This document shows, piece after piece, positions 12,228 to 14,751 of a stretch of DNA of 64,000 bases. The notes beneath the pieces were generated by a model. That model did not search any database, was not told the DNA's origin, and worked only from the letters and a program-made list of their open reading frames with translations. The number at the start of each line of letters is the position of its first letter. Positions within the stretch are counted from its first letter, which is position 1. Origin of the DNA: Oceanispirochaeta sp. (GTDB lineage Bacteria > Spirochaetota > Spirochaetia > DSM-2461); the NCBI GenBank assembly GCA_963663385.2, contig CAXXXD010000003.1, positions 1,504,001 to 1,568,000 of the forward strand, read 5' to 3'. The position numbers and the translations under genes were made by a program.

Positions 12228-12722
12228 TCAAATATTTAACTGTTCCATAACATTGCAGCTTGTGGCATCCAGCGCCGGAAGAAAACGCTCCATATAGGGT
12301 GCTATTTCGGATCCTCTCATTATTTTGCCGGTATCGAAAAAAGTCTGGAAATTCAAAAGATACACTATCAGAAAACAGAGGAGGATCCCTTCCAGGATAC
12401 CAAAGAAAAAACCAAGCAGTTTATCCACACTCTCAAAGGGTGTTTCATTTATTAAATAGACAATTCCTTTCTGCAGAAGCTTGAAAGCTATAAAGGCAGC
12501 GAGAAAGAGAACCGAAAAAGCAATTATAAACGCAGCATCCTCGAGGGATGAACGGGATTGAATCCATTCTGCACCGTCCTGATAAAATACAGCAGCCAGC
12601 AGGAGACTGATAAACAGTGCGGCAATAGAGATCAGTTCACCGATCATCCCGATGAAAGCCCCCCTGATCGATGCTATAAGTATTAGCGCAATAAAGATTA
12701 TATCAATAACAGCCCAACTCAT
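12228..12722 (-). CDS. cvpA: CvpA (colicin V production) family membrane protein
   Basis: IDIIF...RGAFIG..GEL; DKLLGFFFG..EG; four TM segments. Confidence 0.85.
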   Translation of the reverse strand: MSWAVIDIIFIALILIASIRGAFIGMIGELISIAALFISLLLAAVFYQDGAEWIQSRSSLEDAAFIIAFSVLFLAAFIAFKLLQKGIVYLINETPFESVDKLLGFFFGILEGILLCFLIVYLLNFQTFFDTGKIMRGSEIAPYMERFLPALDATSCNVMEQLNI

Positions 12723-13807
12723 TTTGTCTCCTCATCCATAATGCTGGAAAGAATAATGTCCTCAGCCGGTTTCTTGACAAAACCGGCGGCAGCCTGCTTC
12801 ATTTTGCTCAATATATCCTGATTATCCAGGATTTTCCGGACGGATTGTACAAAGAGATCCTTGTCTACAGATTCCGGAAGAACCTCAGCCGCACCCTGCT
12901 CCCCGAATATGGCGGCATTTCGAATCTGATCCCCCCTTGATCCGGCGGCCAATGGAAGAAGCAGAGCCGGCGTACCCGCTGCTGCAAGCTCCCAGAGCGT
13001 TCCTGCACCGGATCTGGAAAAAGCAAGATCCGCCTTCCGGAAAAGGGCCGGCAATTCCTCGTTTATATAAGGCAGGGGCATATAGTTTTCAGAATCGGAG
13101 GGTGTGTAATTCTTTTCCCCCATCTGATGGATAACAAAAATATCCTCTCCCAGTTCGGCAAGGGATTCCCTCACCAGGCTGTTAAGCTGAACTGCCCCCA
13201 GACTGCCACCGATAACAGCAAGGACCTTTCTGCTTCCGATACGCTCCAGCCAGGAAGCAGGAAGCTTCAGGGATTCATCAGAAAATTCAGATCTGACAGG
13301 ATTTCCGGAAACAACAATCTTATGCTGAAGTTTAGCCGGATAGAACTTGAGACTCTTATGGTATGCTACAAAAATCTTGCGGGCAAAACGACTGTTTATT
13401 CTGGTGGCCAGCCCCGGATCGACATCTGAGTCATGCGTATATACGGGTATTCCCAGACACCAGGCCGCCAGAACAGGCGGGACGCTGACAAAGCCTCCCT
13501 TGGAAAATAAGAAAACCGGTTTCAGCCTTCCCAGTATAATCAGAGACTGGAAAAACCCTAATAAGATTCTGAAAATATCCGTAAAATTCCTGAATGAAAA
13601 ATAACGCCTCAGCTTTCCCGTACTGATACCTTTGTAGGAGAGATCCCACCGGTCCGCCAGATCCTTTTCTATACCCGCAGCAGAACCTATCCAGTAAATA
13701 GTACAAGCCTCAGCCTTGAGTTTCCGTATGAGAGGTAAAGCGGGATAGACATGACCGCCCGTGCCTCCTCCGGTCATGACGACTATTTTTCCGTGTATAT
13801 GATTCAA
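12719..13807 (-). CDS. murG: Undecaprenyl-PP-MurNAc-pentapeptide GlcNAc transferase
   Basis: TGGGTGGHVYP, SKGGFVS, GNPVR, GGSLGA, SRSGAGT, DQ..NA motifs. Confidence 0.97.
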   Translation of the reverse strand: MNHIHGKIVVMTGGGTGGHVYPALPLIRKLKAEACTIYWIGSAAGIEKDLADRWDLSYKGISTGKLRRYFSFRNFTDIFRILLGFFQSLIILGRLKPVFLFSKGGFVSVPPVLAAWCLGIPVYTHDSDVDPGLATRINSRFARKIFVAYHKSLKFYPAKLQHKIVVSGNPVRSEFSDESLKLPASWLERIGSRKVLAVIGGSLGAVQLNSLVRESLAELGEDIFVIHQMGEKNYTPSDSENYMPLPYINEELPALFRKADLAFSRSGAGTLWELAAAGTPALLLPLAAGSRGDQIRNAAIFGEQGAAEVLPESVDKDLFVQSVRKILDNQDILSKMKQAAAGFVKKPAEDIILSSIMDEETK

Positions 13808-13901
13808 GACAGGTAATCCCCCTGATGATAAGCCTTGGTTGAATGCCTAAACTCTACACCAGAATTCCAAAATAATCTATAAACTATTAAAAGCAATTTT
13901 C

Positions 13902-13929
13902 TTGCTTTTCTTCATGACTATGTTACAAT
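13902..13929 (+). promoter_or_regulatory. Sigma-70-like promoter driving an orphan small transcript
   Basis: TTGCTT-16 nt-TACAAT with extended -10 TG (TGtTACAAT). Confidence 0.6.
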
Positions 13930-13934
13930 TAATA

Positions 13935-14121
13935 GTGTAAGGAATTTCTATAGGAGGTTGATATGAAAGATACTCCACCTAGAAGAGGAAGCCGGTGAAC
14001 GCCGGCCCTGTGAATCTGAATAAACCTACGGTTCTCCCTTAAGAGAACTAAAATATAAAGTGAGATTGCATGCCCTAAGAAAGCATGAATCCGTAGTGCC
14101 GGCGACTGCCGGCTTTTTTTT
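13935..14121 (+). ncRNA. Candidate structured small RNA (about 185 nt) containing an 11-codon mini-ORF
   Basis: Bounded by promoter and intrinsic terminator; several nested stems; no downstream same-strand gene. Confidence 0.45.
14098..14121 (+). terminator. Intrinsic terminator
   Basis: GCCGGC-GACT-GCCGGC followed by T8. Confidence 0.85.
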
Positions 14122-14165
14122 AATAACCAATCCTCTCGGCTCCGCTCGAAGATCTGTAAGTATGA

Positions 14166-14397
14166 TAAAAAAAAACAGGATCCTTGCGGATCCTGAATTA
14201 TTATGGGCGATGAGGGACTTCTGTCCGGAGATTATCATCCTGATAATCTCCAACCAGCCGGCTCCATCGTTAAAACAGCATCCATGCTGTTTTACGCTCC
14301 AGGCATTCGCGCCACTCTTCCGCTTCAAGTCCCTCATGAAGGTAAAAAAAAACAGGATCCTTGCGGATCCTGAATTATTATGGGCGATGAGGGACTT
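14166..14397. repeat. 55-bp exact direct repeat (tRNA-Val 3' 17 nt + terminator) flanking a palindrome-rich insert
   Basis: 14166-14220 identical to 14343-14397. Confidence 0.9.
14344..14372 (-). terminator. Intrinsic terminator of tRNA-Val cluster
   Basis: Minus strand CAGGATCC-GCAA-GGATCCTG followed by T9; second copy at 14167-14195. Confidence 0.9.
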
Positions 14398-14453
14398 GAA
14401 CCCCCGACATCCTGCTTGTAAGGCAGGCGCTCTCCCAACTGAGCTAATCGCCC
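14381..14453 (-). tRNA. tRNA-Val(TAC)
   Basis: GGGCGATTAGCTCAGTTGGGAGAGCGCCTGCCTTACAAGCAGGATGTCGGGGGTTCAAGTCCCTCATCGCCCA; cloverleaf, anticodon TAC, CCA not encoded. Confidence 0.98.
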
Positions 14454-14530
14454 TTTAAATAGGGTGGATTGTAATAATCCTGTTTTACGAAGCCCCTTTA
14501 CTTTTCTGTGAAAAAAAACAAAGGAACTTA

Positions 14531-14603
14531 TGGGCGATGAGGGACTTGAACCCCCGACATCCTGCTTGTAAGGCAGGCGCTCTCCCAACTGAGCTAATCG
14601 CCC
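14531..14603 (-). tRNA. tRNA-Val(TAC)
   Basis: Identical copy of 14381-14453. Confidence 0.98.
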
Positions 14604-14678
14604 TTTAAATAGGGTGGATTGTAATAATCCTGTTTTGCGAAGCCCCTTTACTTTTTTATGGAAAAACAAAGGAACTTA

Positions 14679-14751
14679 TGGGCGATGAGGGACTTGAACC
14701 CCCGACATCCTGCTTGTAAGGCAGGCGCTCTCCCAACTGAGCTAATCGCCC
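14679..14751 (-). tRNA. tRNA-Val(TAC)
   Basis: Identical copy of 14381-14453. Confidence 0.98.

Follow-up and report, generated by a model that had tools for sequence, protein, structure and literature searches.

A widely conserved spirochaete RNA family with a predicted Pro-Pro mini-ORF and attenuator-like anatomy but no common downstream gene

What is the function of a structured RNA of about 185 nt that lies between a divergent murG-like gene and three convergent tRNA genes, with what look like a promoter, a mini-ORF and a terminator of its own? The element sits in a 64,000-nt stretch of DNA from Oceanispirochaeta sp. (hereafter the window, meaning the whole stretch that was analysed), and an earlier note had described it as an unannotated stand-alone unit with a mini-ORF. 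That description is supported, as a prediction from sequence: the promoter, Shine-Dalgarno sequence (SD), mini-ORF, GCCGG/CCGGC hairpin, inner stems and terminator that it listed are all present in the DNA where they had been placed, and are arranged as follows.

12719..13807, minus strand: divergent murG-like glycosyltransferase gene (Pfam Glyco_transf_28 N and C)
13902..13929, plus strand: predicted sigma70-type promoter, read from the sequence (−35 TTGCTT at 13902-07, 16-nt spacer, TG-n-TACAAT at 13921-29)
13936..14121, plus strand: predicted primary transcript of ~185 nt, deduced from promoter and terminator
13951..13957, plus strand: SD, TAGGAGG, also the 5′ strand of a weak hairpin, P0, whose partner is the Pro-Pro codons
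13963..13998, plus strand: mini-ORF MKDTPPRRGSR, from ATG 13963 to TGA 13998
13975..13980, plus strand: Pro-Pro (PP) codons CCA CCT, predicted pause site and anti-SD
13991..14006, plus strand: hairpin P1, GCCGG/CCGGC, whose loop holds the stop codon
14030..14049, plus strand: hairpin P2, variable in sequence (z −3.0 here), with a hairpin at the same place in homologues
14057..14092, plus strand: A-rich linker, RUGA motif and hairpin P3 (z −2.6), ending 3-5 nt 5′ of the terminator
14098..14121, plus strand: intrinsic terminator GCCGGC-GACT-GCCGGC-T8 (stem 14098-14113 plus T8)
14381..14751, minus strand: three convergent tRNA-Val(UAC) genes with their own terminators

Over 13700-14195 no base differs between the window and the contigs of four DNA runs. 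Transcription, and its independence of the neighbouring genes, is predicted from the element's own promoter and terminator. The promoter at 13902..13929 is absent from the output of a consensus promoter scan, and its −35 hexamer matches 3/6. By eye, −35/−10-like hexamers at similar spacing, with a variable spacer, recur in 12 syntenic homologues, and a −10-like hexamer lies at most 70 nt from the start codon in 29/35 loci, which is a weak test in AT-rich DNA.

The element is real and belongs to a family missing from Rfam, with homologues at 46 loci in 45 genomes that represent 10 families and lie without exception inside the window's class (39 loci in the main tally plus seven later ones, with 35 in the folding set and 36 in the neighbour set). 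A BLAST-type DNA search of 61 genomes matched the window alone, with nothing in the 60 relatives, and the homologues were obtained through synteny, models and patterns. The comparison of murG-upstream DNA in relatives that the earlier note had called for showed that the window's genus has the element in 8 of 11 genomes and genus g3 in 4/4; six homologues were recognised by reading and five more with a model of the 3′ portion and over wider regions. When trained on the eight window-genus loci, a model recovers three of the four g3 loci at the same coordinates (E 0.001-0.004). Pattern searches of 401 genomes of the class added two and then 21 further loci at unrelated positions, a phylum-wide pattern search one more, an internal motif three more and a sequence profile seven more. 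For 24 of the 39 tallied loci the search pattern demanded the PP bases, the following purines and the P1 core, and mostly the spacer too, whereas no pattern demanded the reading frame, the stop or the terminator; an SD-like word was demanded in one search (one locus) and an upstream GG in another (two loci). The members of the family are kin.

Candidates were screened case by case. Forty regions were fetched from 90 pattern-matching genomes, of which 20 were real and 20 were rejected as lying within ORFs or lacking an SD or terminator; the remaining matches among the 90 were judged by the listed match alone. In smaller sets, 2/10 pattern regions, 7/15 new profile matches and 1/4 regions from the phylum search were real. 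A pattern scan of a genome collection returned 88 stretches, three of them real (L053, L074 and L099, all named spirochaete records), which were kept out of the tally as they may duplicate genomes already counted. Metagenome scans gave 0 and 11 matches and a viral scan 11, none of them real; murG-upstream DNA from 40 genomes of other families held no homologue; and among ~306 genomes of other classes the listed matches, one of which was inspected, all had one mismatch and lacked an SD plus in-frame PP. With the queries used, the element was not found in G008 (98% complete), G010 (93%) or G001 (85%), nor in genera g4, g5 and g6 and several small-genome families of the class. A second match in G000, the window's own genome, MKALPPKT at C3:391134, was discarded as an internal Met of a longer ORF. 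As a side observation, a ~254-aa ORF at L228 10795-11556 (G000 C3:390800-391550) has an HPD-containing tail, which we take to be J-domain-like, and no Pfam match at E 1e-5.

No Rfam 15 family reaches its gathering score in the window (tRNAs only) or at 20 homologue loci, and loose E-value scans of three members returned only sub-threshold, terminator-level chance matches. The element is not 6S, SRP, RNase P or tmRNA, as the earlier note had largely judged by eye, since a full copy of each lies elsewhere in genome G000. P1 was also considered as the P4 hairpin of a cobalamin riboswitch and rejected: no such family matches at E up to 10 and the loop is not conserved. No description of the RNA was found in literature searches covering open-access papers; the supplementary motif tables of large comparative screens (PMC1950547, PMC2864571, PMC5737381, PMC6429828) could hold a motif that Rfam lacks. 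Leptospira biflexa is the only spirochaete name found in a searched supplement of PMC8632094, and PMC12612679, on dual-function sRNAs, has 0 occurrences of "spiroch". Judged by sequence comparison, this is a new and widely conserved spirochaete RNA family.

The mini-ORF follows the pattern M-x(1-3)-P-P-[K/E/V/R/D]-x3-R-(x)-stop. A GGRGG SD precedes it in 38/39 loci, with one ambiguous, and the start codon lies 6, 9 or 12 nt 5′ of Pro-Pro in 14, 17 and 8 loci (39/39), so that Pro-Pro stays in frame through spacings of one, two and three codons in all 39 tallied and all seven later loci. The first Pro codon is CCA in 30 loci and CCG in nine, the second CCT in 31, CCC in five and CCA in three; CCA-CCT is the rarest Pro pair in the long ORFs of the window genome (1.3% of 2133). 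The distance from the first Pro codon to P1 is 16 nt (in g3, 16-17 nt as far as the stem base) and is equal in eight loci of genus g1 found by synteny and in three found by the internal motif. The P1 loop contains an in-frame stop triplet in 24/39 loci, against three and one for the other two frames, with TGA, TAA and TAG used 11, 7 and 4 times among 22; a stop occupies the same position in 6/7 later loci, and 16/39 ORFs (7-30 aa) have no stop in the P1 loop. The earlier note, which had seen the mini-ORF, missed this conserved signal, which consists of the Pro-Pro pair at a fixed distance from P1 and of a stop within the P1 loop, and also missed the partner swap between P1 and terminator described below. 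Translation of the mini-ORF is likely, given the SD, the conservation of frame and P1-loop stop and the rarity of CCA-CCT, and we are highly confident, on the basis of this conservation, that the element is a genuine conserved gene whose mini-ORF is translated.

The peptide could itself be the product, in which case the element would be a small mRNA for an M-x-PPK peptide and its hairpins would only stabilise the transcript and limit initiation. The strong SD, the putative promoter and terminator, a length of 9-13 aa in 23/39 loci and the lysine that follows PP in 28 of 39 loci all suit that reading, although the lysine was partly demanded by the search patterns and E (6), V (3), R (1) and D (1) also occur. 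Against it, the only constant residues are the two prolines and the Arg encoded by P1, the peptides (7-30 aa, mostly polar and variable) have unrelated tails, and 100-190 nt of RNA with a conserved architecture lie 3′ of the stop; we consider it improbable. Three peptides of 26-30 aa were not found in a search of a protein collection. Type I toxin mRNAs encode a conserved hydrophobic peptide of ~30 aa, and the polar, variable peptides here, mostly 9-13 aa, do not fit that class. Selenocysteine read-through of the three in-frame TGA codons was likewise rejected, since TAA and TAG replace TGA; there is no tRNA-Sec among the genome's 58 tRNAs, and a SelB domain was not found in it. The genome does have EF-P with a PGKG loop, adjoining an epmA-like gene. 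The residue before PP takes 11 different values, so the putative Pro pause is not optimised; CCA has been found to strengthen weak Pro pauses in a his-leader reporter (PMC8129111).

A second role for the Pro-Pro codons is suggested by their pairing with the SD. The earlier note's proposal that the ribosome-binding site pairs inside the ORF holds in that the SD can pair with the Pro-Pro codons, but the resulting hairpin, P0, folds alone at z −0.3 in the window, no better than shuffles, and has fewer than two expected pairs in 9/35 loci. The pairing spans a central purine-purine mismatch in 38/38 loci and its core G-C pairs never vary, while the flanking pair is A-U, G-U or G-C in 35/38, being broken in the other three and in four f25 loci. 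A C at the sixth PP position faces a G of the SD in 5/5 loci, whereas other bases there do so in 6/33 (Fisher p 0.0009, overstated because about four lineages are involved), and G086 provides a sixth co-varying C/G case. It is probable that the PP bases have two functions, one as codons and one as a partial anti-SD. Since CCR-CC codons also pair with the SD, Pro-Pro may even be a by-product, and the RNA could then serve as a decoy or scaffold for a protein that would recognise the SD:CCRCC hairpin and its purine-purine mismatch, with translation only clearing or protecting the 5′ part. The co-variation, the invariant mismatch and the free residue before PP favour such a decoy, while the weakness of P0, the broken flanking pairs beside an invariant core and the fixed PP-to-P1 spacing, which it leaves unexplained, weigh against it, and we regard it as unlikely.

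The remaining anatomy is fixed across the family. The five pairs of P1 are kept in 39/39 loci, the outer pair changing from G-C to U-A in four, and its inner pair occurs as six types in 35/39. A variable middle follows, with hairpin P2 plus clade-specific insertions, then an A-rich linker carrying a RUGA/RCGA-like motif in 31/39, then P3, whose stem base shows U-A/C-G changes among homologues, and finally the terminator, whose five core pairs are kept in 39/39 with G-C to A-U changes at three positions. Two clade-specific features deserve mention on their own. Members of g2 and f10 (L282-L285, L288, L289, L340, L342, L344) have a common inserted motif, GGAGRCGCCTATMGA, with a second SD-like word; in a motif search this insert was confined to these RNAs (5/191 genomes). 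Those of f2 (L295-L301) and f40 (L241, L286) have an extra 5′ hairpin between promoter and SD, with a GNRA-type loop in some.

Folding of the 188-nt stretch gives z = −4.4, with 0/200 shuffles as good, and four of its five local hairpins (P1, P2, P3 and the terminator) fold singly at z −2.6 to −3.5; when the terminator is left out, the RNAs of 35 loci still fold at a median z of −2.7. P1 and the terminator have nearly identical GCCGG/CCGGC stems, so their strands can swap, and in the window genome the predicted lowest-energy fold of the whole RNA does pair P1 strands with terminator strands. The unswapped hairpin fold drawn in the earlier note dominates in 32/35 loci, but is thus not the lowest-energy fold of the RNA for which it was drawn. 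Two other parts of that drawing are present in the window and do not extend to the family: the CTACG/CGTAG closing helix was not seen in alignments and folds of homologues, and the CC(T)TAAG common to two loops occurs twice in 1/39 loci and is genome-specific.

A leader ORF followed by exchangeable hairpins is the architecture of the trpL and hisL attenuators, in which tandem control codons precede segment 1, the stop lies between segments 1 and 2, segment 2 can pair with segment 3, and segments 3 and 4 form a terminator with a U-tract. The spirochaete RNA resembles them in its leader ORF with SD and conserved control codons (39/39 and 7/7), in the stop within the P1 loop, in the possible pairing of the P1 3′ strand with the terminator, and in the U-tract. 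It differs in that its SD is paired with the control codons, that 70-160 nt with two or more hairpins separate segments 2 and 3, that some clades have no antiterminator, and that there is no common regulated gene.

P1 starts 13 nt after the first base of the second Pro codon and the stop lies between its strands; with the edge of the ribosome footprint taken at +16, the P1 start falls at that edge. In transcripts cut 8 nt into the terminator, with an antiterminator defined as at least three pairs, an antiterminator was predicted in 21 of 35 loci with the second proline (Pro2) in the P site and in 25 with the ribosome one codon on, as compared to three for free RNA, two with the first proline in the P site and none with the ribosome at the stop, a stall-versus-stop contrast that is partly built into the ribosome masking. 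Among later loci it formed in 7/10 with Pro2 in the P site. It is absent in 4/4 g3 loci and weak in g2, f6, f38 and f47. The P1 3′ strand prefers its own terminator over 85% of 271 control terminators in 24/35 loci and over 95% in 13/35; 37% of the terminators of the window genome have CCG in the 5′ strand, and compensatory changes in the terminator preserve its own stem and weaken its pairing to P1. The mutually exclusive 1:2, 2:3 and 3:4 helices are accordingly predicted in 21-25 of 35 loci, are absent from g3, and give way at equilibrium, where the terminator returns in the full-length folds of 9/12 loci (P about 1) despite the ribosome mask. The switch would therefore have to be kinetic.

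What such a switch might control is not evident from the neighbouring genes. Among 36 loci the first downstream feature is convergent in 18, on the same strand in 16 and a contig end in two. The 16 on the same strand fall into five families that are not related to one another (DAGK/YegS kinase, HTH-B12 regulator, and Exo_endo_phos, radical SAM and PhzF proteins), so that no functionally related same-strand gene was found downstream. The murG neighbourhood itself is confined to g1 and g3. The earlier note's statement that the element is not a cis-leader is thus correct here and for one half of the family; other loci have same-strand genes, and read-through into a neighbour may occur. The element could on that basis be a cis-acting attenuator whose output is read-through, in sense into the next gene or antisense into convergent units, or else the relic of a lost operon. 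Its full attenuator anatomy would be accounted for, and same-strand genes begin within about 115 nt in g3, f2, f6, G392 and G194; g2, f10 and f12 have corrinoid or URO-D genes downstream, and G194 has a B12-binding regulator there. Yet these genes share no common function, URO-D genes are abundant (10-53 per genome) and ~25% identical between lineages, and conservation across 10 families makes a relic unlikely. Genus g3 has a same-strand gene, for the DAGK/YegS kinase, yet no antiterminator, and this gene occurs elsewhere without the RNA in 13 other genomes. In three of the four g3 genomes (L211, L213, L214) it has, by eye, its own extended −10-like site 6-7 nt before the start and no SD, which suggests a leaderless mRNA. 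We judge cis action of this kind to be distinctly unlikely. As the anatomy is kept while the neighbours change, the output is probably not the downstream gene, and in the absence of a cis target common to the family it most likely acts in trans. In short, the predicted anatomy is that of a proline-sensing attenuator that has no common downstream gene.

Several rearrangements were observed around these genes. On the minus strand of the window, 14161-14337 is a degenerate fourth tRNA-Val-like repeat, in which the terminator and both tRNA ends are kept (identical terminators at 14176-95 and 14353-72) around ~110 unrelated bases; a similar remnant occurs in L004 (G010). In G013 (L151 6300-7000) the tRNA-Val repeats form an inverted duplication beside a second partial murG match near a contig end, possibly an assembly artefact. 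In six g1 genomes (L139-L144) murG and the RNA are separated by a D12-class adenine methyltransferase gene, which G000 has at another place, C3:479375. The RNA gene is present twice in G080, as near-identical copies separated by 5.6 kb (L288 2680-2980 and 8330-8630), each followed by a convergent URO-D/corrinoid cluster, which may mark the insertion of a catabolic cluster at the RNA gene.

Among RNAs that may act in trans, a CsrB-like sponge was one candidate: the earlier note had proposed that three GGA motifs at the 5′ end could bind CsrA, and csrA is present in the genome and the SD contains GGA in many members. The motif count is not conserved, with one GGA before P1 in 11, two in 13, three in 10 and four in five of the 39 loci, and the loop motif ANGGA is not repeated (0-1 in 19/39, at most four). 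In addition, csrA adjoins a fliW-like gene, and FliW is a protein antagonist of CsrA. A sponge is therefore very improbable.

Other precedents combine a short ORF with a structured transcript, and we compared them as far as the accessible portions of the cited texts allow. Dual-function sRNAs (PMC12612679) similarly unite an ORF and a structured non-coding part in one transcript, and the spirochaete RNA has the promoter and terminator of its own, as predicted elements, that such an RNA needs; it differs in its peptide, barely conserved beyond PP, and in the stop within a conserved hairpin loop. There is no conserved single-stranded seed beyond RUGA, and in a crude scan of 3032 start regions of one genome the best duplexes were near the shuffled best for four of five segments. 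Neither Rae1-type NYN nor ProQ domains were found in G000. Sinorhizobium rnTrpL/peTrpL (PMC6614838, PMC12612679) is alike in its short ORF, terminated RNA and possible trans role. It is unlike in having Trp rather than Pro codons, a gene that it controls in cis, trpE(G), and known targets for base-pairing, whereas no common cis gene and no target were found here. In Salmonella mgtL and mgtP, Pro codons in a short leader allow translation to switch stem-loops, and mgtP responds to the level of EF-P (PMC5021804, PMC12856214). The link between proline codons in a short ORF and stem-loop switching is shared, as a prediction for the spirochaete RNA, whereas mgtL and mgtP are cis-acting leaders of mgtA and mgtCBR, the first working via Rho; no Rfam match ties these leaders to the spirochaete RNA.

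Taken together, we favour a reading in which the Pro-Pro mini-ORF, likely translated, would be a sensor of ribosome speed. With a ribosome held at the second proline, P1 would open and its 3′ strand would become available for pairing with the terminator, while a ribosome that reaches the P1-loop stop would allow the terminator to fold. Proline or EF-P status would in this way set the amount of terminated, correctly folded RNA that is released to act in trans, and the P3-terminator junction (RUGA motif, P3, 3-5 nt, terminator) is proposed as the trans-acting part, binding a hypothetical protein partner. The idea that a pause at Pro-Pro controls how a trans-acting RNA folds or whether it is released is a tentative proposal, to which we give somewhat less than an even chance. 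The more specific version, a free-standing attenuator without an operon in which Pro-Pro translation reads EF-P or prolyl-tRNA status and turns it, through the amount or fold of a trans-acting RNA, into a signal of translation stress, is possible but rather doubtful. If the switch is true, it would be a new way to relay the status of the ribosome or of EF-P to other genes, and the weaker readings, too, would mean a new family of small RNAs or small peptides, in a group of bacteria with few known riboregulators.
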